Source: Solirubrobacterales bacterium
GTDB lineage: Bacteria > Actinomycetota > Thermoleophilia > Solirubrobacterales > 70-9
Direction of reading: 5' to 3'
DNA length: 64,000 nt
Assembly: GCA_036266075.1 (NCBI GenBank)
Contig: DATANV010000015.1
Coordinates: 52,686 to 116,685, forward strand
Both the position numbers and the translations under genes were made by a program. A model generated the notes under the pieces. That model ran no database searches. It was not told where the DNA came from and saw only the letters and a program-made list of their open reading frames with translations. Positions 2,963 to 17,775 of this stretch are shown piece after piece. How positions within the stretch are numbered: the stretch's first letter is position 1; each line of letters begins with the position of its first letter.

Positions 2963-2968
2963 GTCGAT

Positions 2969-2996
2969 GGCGATTTGAGAATCGCCGCGTTTATCT
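2969..2996 (+). terminator. Weak terminator-like hairpin after the dehydrogenase gene
   Basis: GGCGATT-TGAG-AATCGCC stem-loop followed by GCGTTTATCTCT. The U-tract is poor. Confidence 0.35.
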
Positions 2997-3009
2997 CTAC
3001 AGTAGGGCG

Positions 3010-3486
3010 ATGGGAGCGCGGCGCCTGTTCGCTGCGGCAATCGTCGGCCTGGGCCTCCTGGTATTCACCGGGAGCGCTCAGGCCTGCACCTGCGCTTCCC
3101 TGCCGGCGAAGGCCGCGCTGAGGAGCGCGGACGCCGTGATCGTTGCCCGGCTGCTGGAGGTCGTCCCGCGAGACGCCTACCGGAGCGACTTTCGCTACCG
3201 GGTACAGCGTGTCTACAAGTCCGCTGCTGGACTTCGACCCGGTGCTGCGGTTCTCGTGCGCAGCTCGAGTGACGGCTCGGCTTGCGGTCTGCCCGACGCC
3301 GTCGGGCGTCGCTACGGGCTGCTTCTCAGCGCCGAAGACGAAGCTGTGGCGGGAGAGCCCTACGGCGCTGGCTGGCGGGGAGCAAGCTGCGGAGAGTTCT
3401 CCCCCGGGAGGCTTCGGTCGATGGTGCGCGAAGCGTCGGGCAGGGGCGGGCAAAGGATCGGGGCCCTGGCAAGCTGTGCTAGTTGA
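3010..3486 (+). CDS. Secreted TIMP/NTR-like protein (predicted mature N-terminus CTC...)
   Basis: Signal peptide MGARRLFAAAIVGLGLLVFTGSAQA, then CTCASLPAKAALRSADAVIVARLLEV...FRYRVQRVYKS...ACG...YGLLLSA...C. This parallels the human TIMP-1 N-domain [23 protein letters not shown]...YEIKMTKMYKG...VCG...FLIAG (recalled from memory). Confidence 0.6.
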   Translation: MGARRLFAAAIVGLGLLVFTGSAQACTCASLPAKAALRSADAVIVARLLEVVPRDAYRSDFRYRVQRVYKSAAGLRPGAAVLVRSSSDGSACGLPDAVGRRYGLLLSAEDEAVAGEPYGAGWRGASCGEFSPGRLRSMVREASGRGGQRIGALASCAS

Positions 3487-3506: not shown

Positions 3507-3530
3507 ACTGTGCCTACTAGATGGCACAGT
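3507..3530. promoter_or_regulatory. Near-perfect 24-bp palindrome overlapping the GntR-family gene start (candidate auto-operator)
   Basis: ACTGTGCCTACT/AGATGGCACAGT, with 10 of 12 positions symmetric. It spans the ATG at 3521. Confidence 0.45.
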
Positions 3531-4249
3531 ACGTGGCTAGCGAACCGAACCCGTTCGCGACCGACCCAAGCGACGAGCTGCCGGTCGGCCTGCAGCTCAC
3601 CTGGCGTCTGCGGGCGCTGATTTCCAGCGGCCGGCTGGCGACGGGCGAGCGTCTGCCGAGCTTTCGGCAGCTCTCCGAGTGGGCCGGGGTAAATGTCAAC
3701 ACCGTGCGTGCCGTCTACGCGGGCCTCGAGGGCGAGGGATTGGTGGTCAGCCACCAGGGGCAGGGGACCTTCGTCGCCGAGGGAATCGAGGCGGCGCCGC
3801 AGCTCGAGCAGATCGCCACCGAGGCGCTGCGCCGGGCGAGCGAGGCCGGTCTCAGCCCGCGTGACCTGGCGATCGTCGCCTCGGCCTGCGCGAGCATGCC
3901 GGGGGGGCAGAGCGAGCCGCCTGCCGAGCCCGTGCCGGCTCGGCAGGCGGCGGAGGAGGGCGAGACGATCGAGGTCCGCCACGAGCTGCGGCGGCAGATC
4001 GCCCGCCTCGAGGCCGAGCTGTCCTCCTACACCCGCGACCTGCCCAGCGGCATGCCGACCGCGCCGCGCCGCGCGGAGCCGCATGTCGCCGGCGTCGAGG
4101 AGCTCGAGCAGACCCGCGACACCTTGATCGCCCAGCTCTCCGAGGCCCAGCGCGCCGCGGAGCAGCGAGCCCGCGAGAAAGGGCGGGAGCGAGCCCTGCA
4201 GACGAGTCCCCTCGAGCAGGCGATGAGCTGGTGGCGGCGCAAGTCCTAG
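3521..4249 (+). CDS. GntR-family transcriptional regulator
   Basis: N-terminal winged HTH: LPSFRQLSEWAGVNVNTVRAVYAGLEGEGLVVSHQGQGTFV. The C-terminus is coiled-coil-like and not a classical FadR/HutC effector domain. Confidence 0.8.
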   Translation: MAQYVASEPNPFATDPSDELPVGLQLTWRLRALISSGRLATGERLPSFRQLSEWAGVNVNTVRAVYAGLEGEGLVVSHQGQGTFVAEGIEAAPQLEQIATEALRRASEAGLSPRDLAIVASACASMPGGQSEPPAEPVPARQAAEEGETIEVRHELRRQIARLEAELSSYTRDLPSGMPTAPRRAEPHVAGVEELEQTRDTLIAQLSEAQRAAEQRAREKGRERALQTSPLEQAMSWWRRKS

Positions 4250-5037
4250 GGCGCTTCGCCCTCCCGCTGCGATCTGCCTTCGAGCAGACCGGCGAGATGA
4301 CCCTCCTCACCGCGCGGACGATCGTCTCCGCGATCCGGCCGCCGTATCCCTATGGCGAGGAGCTGGTCGACCAGGCGCTCTTCGTCCTCAAGCTCTCATG
4401 GTTTCCGATGTCGATCTCGACCTTCGCCCTCTGCCTCGGTGCGCCGGGCCTGCAGGCGGCGGGGATCCTCAATCTCTTCGGCGGGCTCGACCGGCTCGGT
4501 GGCTTCTTCGTAGTCACTGCGGTTCGCTTCATCGGGCCGGTCGTCACCGCGGTCGTGGTCGGCGGGGTGGCGGGCACCGCGATCACCGCCGACCTCGGCG
4601 CGCGCAAGATCCGCGAGGAGCTCGACGCCCTGCAGGTGCTCGGCGTCGATCCGATCAAGAACCTGGTCGTGCCGCGCTTCCTGGCGTTGATCGTGATCAC
4701 CGGCCTGCTCGACGTCTTCGCGATCGTCTTCGGGCTGACCGCCGGAATCGCCGCCGAGCTGCTCTATCACCAGTCGCTCGGCGGTTTCTTCGCGACCCTC
4801 TTCGCCAACGCCTCGATCACCGACGTTTGGGGCTCGGTGCTGATGTGCTCGCTGTTCGGCGGCATCATCGCCGTCGTCTGCTGCTTCAAGGGGATGACGG
4901 CTTCGGGTGGTGCCGCGGGGGTCGGGCGGGCCGTCAACCAGGCGGTGGTGATCTCGTTCATGGGGGTCTTCGCCTTCCTCTACGTCTTCACCACGGTCCT
5001 GCTCGCGACCAACCCCGAACTGCAGTCGATCCGGTGA
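4231..5037 (+). CDS. MlaE/YrbE-family ABC permease (YrbEA-like)
   Basis: Motif GARKIREELDALQVLGVDPIKNLVVPRF and a multi-TM profile. Overlaps the GntR gene stop. Confidence 0.85.
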   Translation: MAAQVLGRFALPLRSAFEQTGEMTLLTARTIVSAIRPPYPYGEELVDQALFVLKLSWFPMSISTFALCLGAPGLQAAGILNLFGGLDRLGGFFVVTAVRFIGPVVTAVVVGGVAGTAITADLGARKIREELDALQVLGVDPIKNLVVPRFLALIVITGLLDVFAIVFGLTAGIAAELLYHQSLGGFFATLFANASITDVWGSVLMCSLFGGIIAVVCCFKGMTASGGAAGVGRAVNQAVVISFMGVFAFLYVFTTVLLATNPELQSIR

Positions 5038-5831
5038 TCGGCTGGCTCGACGTGCCGCGTGGCTGGCTCGACGCCTTCGGCGAGATCGCTCGCTTCGGCT
5101 CGCGCGTCGCCGGGCTCGTCTATTCGGGCCGCGTCTTCAAGTTCTTCGGCGAGAGCATGCGCCAGGCGGGGATCCTGATCCTCGGCTCGGCGCTGATCAT
5201 CTGGGCCTTCGTCTTCATCCTCGGCCTCAACTGCGGCGTGATCGGCGCCTACTTCGTTCGCGCCCAGGGCGCTCCCGCCCTATCGGGGATCTTCTCCGCC
5301 TATTGCGATCTACGCGAGGGATTGCCCTATGCCTTCGGCTACATCCTCTCGGCCAAGGTCGGGACCGGGATCGTCGCCGAGATCGGGGCAATGCGGATCT
5401 CCGACGAGATCGACGCGCTCGAGGTGATGGGCATCCAGCCGGTGACGTTCCTCGCTGCCACCCGCCTGCTCGCCGCGTGGGTGGCGCTGCCGGTCACCTA
5501 TCTGGTTGCGGTCGGCGTCGCTTATCTGGCGAGCTACCTGGCTGTGGTCGAGCAGGTGGCCGACGTTTCCTCCGGCGGCTACCTGCTGATCTTCTGGATG
5601 TTCCAGGACCCGCTCGACGTGACCTTCAGCCTGATCAAGGCGATGGTGATGGCGACGACCATCGTGATCGTCGGCTGCTACTACGGCTATACCGCGAGCG
5701 GCGGGCCGGTGGGAGTGGGCACCGCGACCGCGCAGTCGATGGTGGTCAACATCATCCTCGTCCACATCATCGGCATGCTCGGCACGCTGGTCTTCTGGGG
5801 GCCGAATCCCCGGGCGCCGATCGGCGGTTAG
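5034..5831 (+). CDS. MlaE/YrbE-family ABC permease (YrbEB-like)
   Basis: The GTG at 5034 overlaps the TGA at 5035-5037 (GTGA). Motif GAMRISDEIDALEVMGIQPVTFLAATRL. Confidence 0.85.
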   Translation: MIGWLDVPRGWLDAFGEIARFGSRVAGLVYSGRVFKFFGESMRQAGILILGSALIIWAFVFILGLNCGVIGAYFVRAQGAPALSGIFSAYCDLREGLPYAFGYILSAKVGTGIVAEIGAMRISDEIDALEVMGIQPVTFLAATRLLAAWVALPVTYLVAVGVAYLASYLAVVEQVADVSSGGYLLIFWMFQDPLDVTFSLIKAMVMATTIVIVGCYYGYTASGGPVGVGTATAQSMVVNIILVHIIGMLGTLVFWGPNPRAPIGG

Positions 5832-15640: not shown

Positions 15641-16423
15641 GTGCTGGACGAGCGCTGGATCCGGTCGCTTCACGTGGAGGCGCTGCGTGAGCGCGAACTC
15701 CACGCCGAGCGCGATCCTCACGTCCTCTTTCAGGCCTCGACGATAGGCGCCCTGATCGAGGGCGCCTACGAGGGCGACCTCAGCTTTGCCGAGCTGGCCG
15801 AGCACGGCGACCTCGGGCTCGGCACGCTGAACGGACTCGACGGCGAGATGATCGCCGTCGACGGCCGCTTCTTCCGTGCCGACGTCGACGGAGCCGTCAG
15901 CCCGATCCCCCCGCAGTCACGCACGCCCTTTGCCGTCGTGACGCGCTTTGCGCCGCAGGTCGAAGCGGAGCTGGAGGGACCGCTCGACCACGACGAGCTG
16001 CTGACGTCGCTAGACGAGCTGCTCCCTGCGGATGCCGCCTCCTGCGCGATCCGCCTCGATGGCCGCTTCGAGCTGGTCCGCGCGCGCTCGGTGCCGCGCC
16101 AGCACCCGCCCTACCGGCCGCTGACCGAGGTCGTCGCCGAGCAGCACGTCTTCGAGCTGCGGGGCGTCGCCGGCACGATGCTCGGCTTTCGCTTTCCCGG
16201 CTACGTCGAAGGGATCGAGGTCAGCGGCTACCACCTGCACTTCATCGACGAGAGCCGTAAGCGCGGCGGCCACGTTCTCGGCTCGCGCTCGGCGGGCCTG
16301 CGCGCACGCCTCGACCCGTCGAGCGAGCTGCGCGTCGAGCTGCCGCCCGGCGTCGACCTCGCCGATCCCGGCCTTGCCGCCGCCACTCATGCTGCGGTCG
16401 AGCGGGTCGAGCGCGACCGCTGA
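15641..16423 (+). CDS. budA: Alpha-acetolactate decarboxylase
   Basis: STIGALIEGAYEGDLSFAELAEHGDLGLGTLNGLDGEMIAVDGRFF and GYHLHFIDE are typical of the family. Confidence 0.82.
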   Translation: MLDERWIRSLHVEALRERELHAERDPHVLFQASTIGALIEGAYEGDLSFAELAEHGDLGLGTLNGLDGEMIAVDGRFFRADVDGAVSPIPPQSRTPFAVVTRFAPQVEAELEGPLDHDELLTSLDELLPADAASCAIRLDGRFELVRARSVPRQHPPYRPLTEVVAEQHVFELRGVAGTMLGFRFPGYVEGIEVSGYHLHFIDESRKRGGHVLGSRSAGLRARLDPSSELRVELPPGVDLADPGLAAATHAAVERVERDR

Positions 16424-17775
16424 CGACTTGGTCCAGCGCTGATGACCACGGTGACCTTGCCGCCTTCCTTCAGCCCCTTGCCTGCCCTGGGCTTTTGGGC
16501 GATCACCTTGCCCTTCGGCACTTTCCGCGAGTGGCGGCGCTTCACTTTCCGCAGCCCGCAGTTGCGCTTGTCGAGGGCTTTCCTTGCCGCCCTGAGCTTC
16601 TTGCCCTCGAGTTTCGGCACCCGGCAGCCGACCGTCTTCGCTTTGAGGGCGGTCGCCACGATCGGTTCCGCCAGGCCGCTGATCTTCACCGTCGCCCCGC
16701 CGATGCCGGCGGCGATCGTTTCGATCGTCAACGGGCTGCGGAAGTCGTGGAACTGGCGCCCCGGGGCGAGCGGCGCGTCGCCGAAGGTGCCCGTCTCCGG
16801 GTTCGTGTCGAGCAGCCGTGAGGGGCGCACGCCGATTCCCCAGCCGGCCGGGTCGAGATGGATAGCGACGCCGTGCACGGCGGGATCGTCGGCGGGATAG
16901 GTTTCGTCGAAGAAGCCGATTCGCTGGCGGAAATCGAGGTCGAGGAACTCGCCGGCCCCGTTCGGGATCCGCAGCAGGCGGACGCCGCTGCTCTGCTCGA
17001 GCGGGACGATCGTGTAGGTGCCGTTGCGGGCGATCGTCGCTGTGTCTGCCGGTGGGATCGCGCCGAGCTCGAACTTGCGCCAGGCCGACATCTCGACCGG
17101 CGGCGACAGCGGGCGGCCGCTGCCCATAGGGTCGAATGGGTCGCCGTACTCGCTGAATTCTTCTCCGGGCGGCCGCACTTCGGCGCACTCGCCGCTGTAG
17201 GCGACCGGCACGTGGCCGGGGCCGAGGCAGCGGTAGGCCGCCGCGTGGGGCGAGCCGAGGACGTGGCCCAGCTCGTGGGCGATCGTGAAGGGTTCGAGGT
17301 TGTTGACCCAGGCCATTTCGCCGCCGCCGATCCCGGATGAGCTGCAGGGGTTCGCCGGGCCCTCGTGCACGAAGATGTAGATGACCTGGCTGTAGTCGGA
17401 TCTGTTGAAGCCATCCTGCGCCGTCGCTTTGCCGGCAGCTTCGGCGTTCCAGGTGTTGAACGGACAGCCGGAGGACGTCGCGACTTCGTAGGGCCCGAAG
17501 ACCGAACCCCCGTCGCCGCTGAAGTCGACGCTGCCGAAGGTCTGGGTGAGGAAGTAGTTCTCGACCGTGAAGCCCCCGGGCGGGTGCCCCGGGTTGAACA
17601 TCGTTTCGGTCACTTCCTGCTCATAGCTGCTCGGCGGCGGGGGGTCGCCTGCCCTGAAGTAGAAGACGACGCCGGTCGGACCGCCACCCGCGGCGCTCAC
17701 CGGGACCGGCGCCGCCACGAGGCCGCAGAGAAGGCTCGCGAAGAGCGCGAGAACGATCCGTCCCGGGAACCCCAT
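16387..17775 (-). CDS. Secreted metzincin-type zinc metalloprotease with C-terminal PASTA-like domain
   Basis: The ATG at 17775 gives MGFPGRIVLALFASLLCGLVAAPVPVSAA. Zinc site HELGHVLGSPH (HExxHxxGxxH). C-terminus VPKLEGKKLRAARKALDKRNCGLRKV...KGKVIAQKPRAGKGLKEGGKVTVVIS matches the PASTA pattern. Confidence 0.75.
   Translation of the reverse strand: MGFPGRIVLALFASLLCGLVAAPVPVSAAGGGPTGVVFYFRAGDPPPPSSYEQEVTETMFNPGHPPGGFTVENYFLTQTFGSVDFSGDGGSVFGPYEVATSSGCPFNTWNAEAAGKATAQDGFNRSDYSQVIYIFVHEGPANPCSSSGIGGGEMAWVNNLEPFTIAHELGHVLGSPHAAAYRCLGPGHVPVAYSGECAEVRPPGEEFSEYGDPFDPMGSGRPLSPPVEMSAWRKFELGAIPPADTATIARNGTYTIVPLEQSSGVRLLRIPNGAGEFLDLDFRQRIGFFDETYPADDPAVHGVAIHLDPAGWGIGVRPSRLLDTNPETGTFGDAPLAPGRQFHDFRSPLTIETIAAGIGGATVKISGLAEPIVATALKAKTVGCRVPKLEGKKLRAARKALDKRNCGLRKVKRRHSRKVPKGKVIAQKPRAGKGLKEGGKVTVVISAGPSRQRSRSTRSTAA

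Follow-up and report, generated by a model that had tools for sequence, protein, structure and literature searches.

A TIMP-like protein encoded by a soil actinobacterium: a probable single-domain N-TIMP homologue and candidate inhibitor of extracellular metalloproteases

Do bacteria make their own counterparts of the tissue inhibitors of metalloproteinases (TIMPs), and if so, against which proteases would they act? The question is raised by a small open reading frame (ORF) located at 3010..3486 on the forward strand of a 64,000-nucleotide stretch of the genome of a soil actinobacterium of the order Solirubrobacterales (the whole stretch analysed is called the window hereafter). The ORF starts with ATG, ends with TGA and comprises 158 codons. 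A previous reading of the window from its letters alone (the sequence-only reading) had proposed that its product is a prokaryotic inhibitor of the NTR/TIMP type, that cleavage of its precursor after Ala-Gln-Ala exposes an N-terminal Cys-Thr-Cys, and that a metzincin encoded at 16387-17775 is a plausible target. The ORF and the blocks quoted in that reading are indeed present, namely FRYRVQRVYKS, S-A-C-G-L, YGLLLSA and a later Cys at residue 127. From the analysis described below we consider it probable, with appreciable room for doubt, that the protein is a secreted single-domain N-TIMP homologue that would inhibit extracellular zinc metalloproteases by the TIMP mechanism.

When the query was used alone, its score against the Pfam TIMP model (PF00965) was 11.3 bits, with a cut-off of 23.1 bits (E = 0.29; residues 24-99 on profile positions 1-86). 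A search of the whole source genome with the same Pfam model gave no matches, NCBIfam searched with the query alone returned nothing, and phmmer with the query alone against the Protein Data Bank (PDB) detected chance matches only. As these single-sequence searches failed, the homology rests on family profiles and on the fold, and not on the single sequence. A profile built from 30 relatives and searched against all 177,635 distinct PDB sequences produced 15 matches, every one of them to TIMP-1, -2 or -3 (best E = 8.5e-5), in an alignment that started at profile position 26, the first mature residue, placed on TIMP residue 1. The equivalent search with a profile of 101 diverse members also detected TIMPs only, with E = 8.9e-7 and an alignment running from Cys1. 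Moreover, when the relatives were scanned singly, 15 of the 30 and 23 of the 101 matched Pfam TIMP at E <= 0.01 (best E = 4e-7), and no other Pfam family recurred among the members of either set. The protein is thus very probably a single-domain N-TIMP homologue.

A structural model of the mature sequence was generated by AlphaFold2 with 120 aligned relatives, yielding a five-strand barrel with flanking helices (pLDDT, predicted local distance difference test, of 78.7; pTM, predicted TM-score, of 0.71). The Foldseek comparison of the mature chain with known structures, which the sequence-only reading had proposed, returned NTR modules exclusively among the top 50 matches listed, TIMPs included (E of 1e-4 to 8e-3, TM of 0.42-0.63). 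The best of them, with TM of 0.5-0.63, were the C345C domain of complement C3, agrin NtA, PCOLCE NTR, TIMP-1 and TIMP-2; the C345C domains of C4 and C5 were also listed. The mature chain is therefore predicted to have an NTR (OB-like) fold. With profile matches confined to TIMPs, Pfam TIMP as the sole recurrent family and the NTR fold recovered by Foldseek, the proposal of a prokaryotic protein of the NTR/TIMP type stands.

For a TIMP-like mode of action the way in which the N-terminus is generated is crucial, as one additional N-terminal residue abolishes inhibition by TIMPs. The precursor begins with MGARRLFAAAIVGLGLLVFTGSAQA, which includes two Arg, a hydrophobic core and A-Q-A, followed by the mature sequence CTCASLPAKAALRSADAVIVARLLEV starting Cys-Thr-Cys. 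Processing statistics were obtained from 131 representatives that have a signal peptide and a C-x-C motif, and in all of them this motif directly follows the signal peptide. Position -3 is Ala in 126 and position -1 is Ala in 129 of these sequences, and position 2 is occupied by Ser (113 sequences) or Thr (10), which together make up 94%. Position -2 is unconstrained, with A, Q, S, L, H, R, F, V, G, E, M, T, Y, K or W found there. The combination of Ala at -3 with a free position -2 points to an A-x-A site for signal peptidase I and not to a lipobox, and a protein processed at such a site should start with a Cys bearing a free alpha-amine. Cleavage after Ala-Gln-Ala with exposure of the Cys1 alpha-amine is predicted by these sequence rules, and the cleavage site originally proposed fits a pattern, A-x-A/C-(S/T)-C, that is near-invariant across the family.

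The sequence-only reading had named lipid modification of this Cys as the processing that would block its alpha-amine. If Cys26 of the precursor were diacylglycerol-modified and cut by signal peptidase II, the alpha-amine would be blocked or held at the membrane, making chelation of the TIMP type impossible. The tail S-A-Q-A-C of the signal peptide fits a permissive PROSITE-type lipobox, as do those of 61 of the 131 relatives, and Tim, a TIMP-like protein from Listeria, is a lipoprotein (PMC8235301). Against this, a strict L-x-x-C lipobox was found in a single sequence out of 131, position -3 being Ala and not Leu in the query and Leu, Val or Ile in only 1 of 131, whereas 70 fail even the permissive pattern and 27 carry at position -2 one of the residues that a lipobox does not allow (H, R, E, K, W or P). 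In addition, there is a conserved position for a disulfide partner of Cys1. On these family statistics the lipoprotein reading was rejected, and we regard it as highly improbable.

The mature protein contains cysteines at positions 1, 3, 67, 102 and 131, which agree with those of the family (1, 3, ~67, ~93-102 and one near the C-terminus). Alignments by hidden Markov model place Cys67 on TIMP-1 Cys70 and Cys102 on TIMP-1 Cys99, the residues that in TIMPs pair with Cys1 and Cys3, respectively. By homology, disulfides Cys1-Cys67 and Cys3-Cys102 would be expected. In complexes between TIMPs and matrix metalloproteinases (MMPs), residues 1-5 and 66-70 form the wedge, or inhibitory edge, that enters the active-site cleft, where the amine and carbonyl groups of Cys1 chelate the zinc and residue 2 faces the S1' pocket. 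In the bacterial family, conservation is highest in the counterpart of this reactive ridge (CSCAP, AACGLP), as shown in Table 1 for close relatives, for which the mean top-residue frequency is 63%. The query has Thr at position 2, where most relatives have Ser; in TIMP-1 to -4 residue 2 is likewise Ser or Thr, with Thr in TIMP-1 and TIMP-3. Conservation of the inhibitory elements of TIMPs, together with the location of the module always at the mature N-terminus, constitutes our main argument that the likeness reflects inhibition and not the mere sharing of a scaffold.

The mechanism that would follow is that of a small exported protein, cut by signal peptidase I after Ala-Gln-Ala, whose mature chain starting Cys1-Thr2-Cys3 would adopt the fold of one NTR module, homologous to the inhibitory N-domain of animal TIMPs. 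Cys1 would be tied to Cys67 and Cys3 to Cys102, as expected by homology, to build a rigid wedge made of Cys1-Ser5 and Ser65-Ala66-Cys67-Gly68. This wedge would slot into the active-site cleft of the protease, allowing the free alpha-amino and carbonyl groups of Cys1 to chelate the catalytic zinc and the side chain of residue 2 (Thr here, Ser in most relatives) to point into the S1' pocket.

The remaining cysteine does not follow the TIMP pattern. The position aligned to TIMP Cys13 is Arg or Leu, so that the third disulfide of the N-domain (Cys13-Cys124) cannot form. Exactly five Cys are present in 102 of 104 close relatives, and in 98 of the 104 the chain runs exactly two residues past the last Cys, typically as C-A-S. 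Possibilities for this unpaired C-terminal Cys are a disulfide in a dimer, an extra ligand or a redox switch. Such an arrangement could also mean that the protein is a thiol or metal protein, in which the Cys-x-Cys motif and the C-terminal Cys would be reduced and serve either to bind a metal such as copper or zinc or as a redox switch, the likeness to TIMPs being that of a shared scaffold. The odd number of cysteines, along with a last Cys fixed two residues from the C-terminus that leaves at least one thiol free, is what such a protein would have. However, four of the five Cys fall in the alignments on the cysteines of two TIMP disulfides, the invariant columns include no conserved His or Met to complete a metal site, and no metal-handling genes were found among the constant neighbours, which makes this explanation improbable.

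To what extent is this protein representative of a family? A word-indexed search detected 192 relatives (90% clusters), with identities to the query of <=60%, and an exhaustive phmmer search of 1.84 billion cluster representatives yielded 267 representatives at 50% identity (E <= 1e-3). Close relatives were all found in genomes of 2-3 Mb from uncultured Solirubrobacterales (Actinomycetota, Thermoleophilia). With the profile of 101 diverse members, 20 of the 201 genomes sampled from the order gave a match; among 401 sampled Actinomycetota genomes the family was present in 62 (~15%), belonging to 47 of 249 genera, at <=4 copies per genome. As these genome searches score only a subset of first-look candidates, the family counts are lower bounds. 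The protein thus belongs to a widespread prokaryotic TIMP-like family, some members of which have already been tagged as 'Tissue inhibitor of metalloproteinase' by JGI; given that annotation pipelines already label relatives in this way, the gene is another member and not a new kind. Within the family, the query carries in a loop a nine-residue acidic insert, EDEAVAGEP (mature 84-92, window 3334-3360), and only ~15% of close relatives have residues at that position.

Long-form relatives (~450-560 residues) consist of an N-terminal TIMP-like module followed by a beta-propeller-like region with no Pfam match. A scan of long forms (~450 residues) for fusion to a protease revealed neither an HExxH motif nor Pfam domains, and a Rosetta-stone fusion to a protease was consequently rejected. 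A conserved ARPLPxPDGxGP linker follows the TIMP-like module in long forms from other Actinomycetota (loci L086-L092 and L096), some of which end in a C-terminal membrane helix.

The 16387-17775 gene was then considered as a possible local source of a target. The sequence-only reading, which gave no strand for it, had described its product as a secreted metzincin, and this identification was borne out, the gene lying on the minus strand. Its product gives weak Reprolysin-type Pfam matches, and relatives at 30-39% identity carry PF05548 (gametolysin, M11). The motif H-E-x-x-H-x-x-G-x-x-H is invariant in the protease family, as is a Met 40 residues downstream. Its structural model (pLDDT 92.9) matched significantly only metzincins in Foldseek, including ADAMTS, snake-venom adamalysins, fragilysin, ADAM10 and archaemetzincin, and MMPs more weakly. 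It is unusual for a protease catalytic domain to be combined with a PASTA domain, which binds peptidoglycan. Outside the window, another contig of the same genome (C38:53459-57574, + strand) encodes a further metzincin of this family in a 1372-codon open frame with HELGHTLGLEH and GDPFDVMG. These are the only two ORFs of the source genome with an HExxHxxGxx(H/D) motif, so that one real secreted metzincin and one paralogue are possible local targets.

The pairing of the TIMP-like protein with the 16387-17775 protease did not survive comparison between genomes. Within the window, 13 kb separates the two genes, which lie on opposite strands. Of the 201 genomes sampled from the order, 20 were found to carry the TIMP-like gene and 13 a member of the protease family; only the source genome carries both, and chance alone would predict ~1.1 co-occurrences in the remaining 200. 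A further comparison covered 46 species genomes with an orthologue of the TIMP-like gene: the protease has no homologue at all in 34 of them, and in nine it is represented solely by a distant, much longer paralogue. Orthologues of the PASTA protease were found in the other three, at 14-33 kb from the TIMP-like gene, and in one of these the gene is split into two pieces. The syntenic site of one relative is empty: here the flanking membrane-protein gene (73% identical) and the ABC-transporter genes are direct neighbours, and the intervening protease gene is missing. The 16387-17775 protease is thus an accessory gene and not a conserved partner of the TIMP-like gene, and was rejected as its cognate partner on phyletic pattern and synteny.

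No other protease took its place. Neighbourhoods of five distant homologues contained thiolase/3HCDH, PRPP synthetase or haem genes, and no constant protease neighbour was detected in these five loci or in 14 further loci across the phylum. In the latter, only one M36 fungalysin gene (at 2.8 kb) and one weak M10-like gene (at ~3 kb) were found within ~3 kb. A linked metalloprotease of any kind was therefore rejected as a partner for the loci examined. The M36 domain (E = 2.5e-69) belongs to an 1830-residue protein encoded at L100:12-5504 (+ strand) in one Actinomycetota genome, where its gene lies upstream of one for a long-form TIMP-like protein; the M36 proteases are not metzincins. Small ORFs of 180-260 codons with full metzincin motifs and Met-turn-like segments (HEYGHWLGLEH..SPMYP, HELGHVLGLGH..ALMNS and HEWGHLLGRGH..DLMAE) were observed in some Solirubrobacterales genomes positive for the TIMP-like gene (loci L060, L076, L077 and L082; genomes G199, G129 and G141). 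Judged from these motifs, their products could be alternative endogenous targets.

The lack of a conserved protease partner is also what would be expected if the protein were a non-inhibitory NTR homologue, exported as a binding module for the cell wall, a polysaccharide or a partner protein. The same can be said of the Foldseek ranking, in which C3 C345C, agrin NtA and PCOLCE NTR stand as high as TIMPs, and of the long forms, in which the module is joined to a beta-propeller-like region or to a membrane anchor and to nothing related to proteases. Nevertheless, the sequence profile finds TIMPs only and no other NTR proteins, and a start exactly at the predicted mature N-terminus, an invariant Cys1 with Ser/Thr2 and a ridge that is the best conserved part of the protein would all be needless for binding. 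We consequently see a binding role as rather unlikely.

Regarding the locus itself (Table 1), the TIMP-like gene exists as one copy in the source genome (2.49 Mb, 94.5% complete). A zinc-type alcohol dehydrogenase (ADH) gene is located on its 5' side, and a GntR regulator gene and two MlaE/YrbE permease genes on its 3' side. The order HD-domain protein / ADH / TIMP-like gene / GntR / MlaE / MlaE is kept over >20 kb in orthologous loci, a conservation that is due to orthology and says little on function. The GntR gene and the two MlaE/YrbE genes (window 3521-5831) are not followed by Mce/MlaD or ATPase genes, the next gene being a convergent GST, and the GntR/MlaE/MlaE arrangement is kept in all orthologous loci. 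The -10 element of a promoter-like site ends 6 nucleotides upstream of the ATG of the TIMP-like gene, and the non-coding block GATTTGnGAATCG..GCGTTTATCTCTACAGT (window 2968-3009) is kept in three relatives. Together, the site and the conserved block hint that the gene is transcribed from a promoter of its own and that its mRNA is leaderless or nearly so, the function of the site being deduced from its sequence. A mobile origin was rejected, since tblastn searches of phage and plasmid collections gave zero matches.

Table 1. Coordinates in the window and conservation of the features discussed in the text
Feature	Position	Strand	Basis or remark
Terminator-like hairpin of the upstream ADH gene	2968-2987		Overlaps the promoter-like block
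Promoter-like site TTGAGA, 17 nt, TACAGT	2975..3003	+	Consensus scan: 1 site vs 0.1 expected
TIMP/NTR-like precursor gene	3010..3486	+	ORF list and sequence; single copy; 192 and 267 homologues
Signal peptide, residues 1-25 (MGARRLFAAAIVGLGLLVFTGSAQA), predicted signal peptidase I site A-Q-A/C	3010..3084	+	Sequence rules and family statistics
Mature protein, 133 aa, predicted single NTR (TIMP N-domain-like) module	3085..3483	+	AlphaFold2 and Foldseek
Cys1-Thr2-Cys3-Ala4-Ser5, counterpart of the TIMP reactive N-terminal segment (TIMP-1 CTCVP)	3085..3099	+	Aligned to TIMP residues 1-5
G-S-A-C-G-L-P, mature 64-70 (Cys67 codon 3283-3285)	3274..3294	+	Counterpart of the TIMP C-D connector (S-V-C70-G) flanking Cys1
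Mature Cys102 (residue 127), counterpart of TIMP Cys99, putative Cys3 partner	3388..3390	+	99-100% conserved; aligned to TIMP-1 Cys99
C-terminal Cys-Ala-Ser; mature Cys131 (residue 156), fifth, unpaired Cys	3475..3483	+	Aligned to TIMP-1 Cys124
Secreted M11/adamalysin-like metzincin with C-terminal PASTA domain	16387..17775	-	HELGHVLGSPH; PASTA E = 5e-13
Close-family conservation, N-terminal segment			Cys1 100%, Ser2 98%, Cys3 100%, Ala4 76%
Close-family conservation, connector			Ala66 98%, Cys67 100%, Gly68 92%, Leu69 98%, Pro70 98%
Close-family conservation, others			Trp97 100%, Cys102 99%

Several observations weigh against an inhibitory role. At the level of sequence, the query by itself falls below the curated threshold of Pfam for TIMP, and at the level of structure the first ten residues of the model are of lower confidence (pLDDT 68). 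The NTR modules of agrin, complement C3, PCOLCE and netrins are binding modules and not inhibitors. The Cys13-Cys124 disulfide of N-TIMPs cannot form in the bacterial protein, which has an odd, strictly conserved C-terminal Cys with no intramolecular partner. With respect to targets, the gene does not co-occur with the proposed protease either in the 201-genome sample or in the 46 species genomes, plausible HExxHxxGxxH proteins were detected in only 4 of 15 TIMP-like-positive genomes by a DNA-pattern search limited by the incompleteness of metagenome-assembled genomes and by variant motifs, and the neighbourhoods of distant relatives are heterogeneous and mostly protease-free.

An apparent conserved promoter of its own, the single copy and the lack of linkage to a protease lead us to read the gene as encoding a stand-alone inhibitor that would act outside the cell. 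Accessory metzincins of the bacterium itself may be the targets where these are present or, more probably, metalloproteases released by other soil organisms, as the phyletic pattern makes foreign soil proteases likelier targets than the two metzincins of the source genome. A broader proposal can be put forward, which we find plausible but would hold only tentatively, as somewhat short of an even chance: prokaryotic single-domain N-TIMPs would be real inhibitors of zinc metalloproteases acting through a free, disulfide-stapled Cys1, so that the TIMP mechanism would not be an invention of eumetazoans; this clade would use it as a stand-alone shield against foreign metzincins; and the C-terminal thiol would add a further feature, for instance covalent dimerisation or a second contact with zinc. 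If members of the family do inhibit metzincins, soil bacteria would have a hitherto unstudied level of control over extracellular proteases, small, two-disulfide, bacterially expressible N-TIMP scaffolds would become available, and the origin of the TIMP/NTR module would be reopened as a question.

The known proteins with which the bacterial one shares most are the animal TIMPs, specifically the N-domain of TIMP-1 to -4 (PF00965; MEROPS I35), with single-domain nematode TIMPs included, to which it is related by sequence homology (profile E = 9e-7) and by its predicted NTR fold. Both are secreted, with a mature N-terminus of the type Cys-Ser/Thr-Cys-Ala/Val-Pro and Cys at the positions of the Cys1-Cys70 and Cys3-Cys99 pairs, and they have in common the S/A-x-C-G connector, a conserved Asp16 and a K-x-Y-K-G-like strand. 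In contrast to animal TIMPs, the bacterial protein is prokaryotic and has one domain, lacking the C-terminal domain with its three further disulfides; it also lacks Cys13, and its equivalent of Cys124 is unpaired and two residues from the C-terminus. The mature protein of 133 residues, which ends where the N-domain ends, is in this respect comparable to isolated N-TIMP and to single-domain invertebrate TIMPs. The other NTR modules (C345C of C3/C4/C5, agrin NtA, PCOLCE NTR and the C-terminal domain of netrins) have the same fold and are top Foldseek matches, but they are internal or C-terminal, have no free Cys1, are mostly non-inhibitory and are unmatched by the sequence profile of the family.

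The origin of the TIMP family has been placed in eumetazoans (PMC10755359), and two other studies of TIMP evolution name no prokaryotic homologue in their text (PMC9409782, PMC4860685). In the searchable literature, the only bacterial 'TIMP-like' protein that we found is the Listeria lipoprotein Tim, whose authors state that they found no earlier record (PMC8235301). Listeria monocytogenes Tim (LMRG_00714) is similar to the present case in having a TIMP-like fold and a host with a secreted metzincin, Mtz (PMC8235301). Tim resembles TIMPs in predicted structure only and not in sequence; it is a lipoprotein with lipobox LTAC, its gene adjoins that of the metzincin, and it is cleaved by Mtz rather than shown to inhibit it (PMC8235301). 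The protein described here differs from Tim in its sequence homology to TIMPs, in its predicted signal peptidase I site exposing Cys1 and in the absence of a linked protease. It adds to the bacterial TIMP-like proteins a homology to N-TIMP at the sequence level and a conserved reactive tip, in a family found in ~15% of sampled Actinomycetota genomes. Two features set the present case apart: its C-terminal Cys is unpaired, and its gene is clearly unlinked to that of the obvious metzincin nearby.

As for mechanism, the same idea is embodied in the serralysin inhibitors. These proteins (Pseudomonas APRin, Serratia SmaPI and Erwinia Inh; MEROPS I38) are extracytoplasmic and insert an N-terminal segment whose N-terminal residue coordinates the zinc of a metzincin. 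They differ from the TIMP-like protein in having an unrelated eight-strand beta-barrel fold and an N-terminal Ser in place of a disulfide-stapled Cys. Their genes adjoin that of the protease, a linkage absent for the TIMP-like gene: aprA-aprI and mtz-tim are cognate gene pairs, whereas the TIMP-like gene is neither adjacent to nor co-inherited with the protease proposed for it. In its putative role as a stand-alone shield, the TIMP-like protein can instead be likened to ecotin, which acts against serine proteases.

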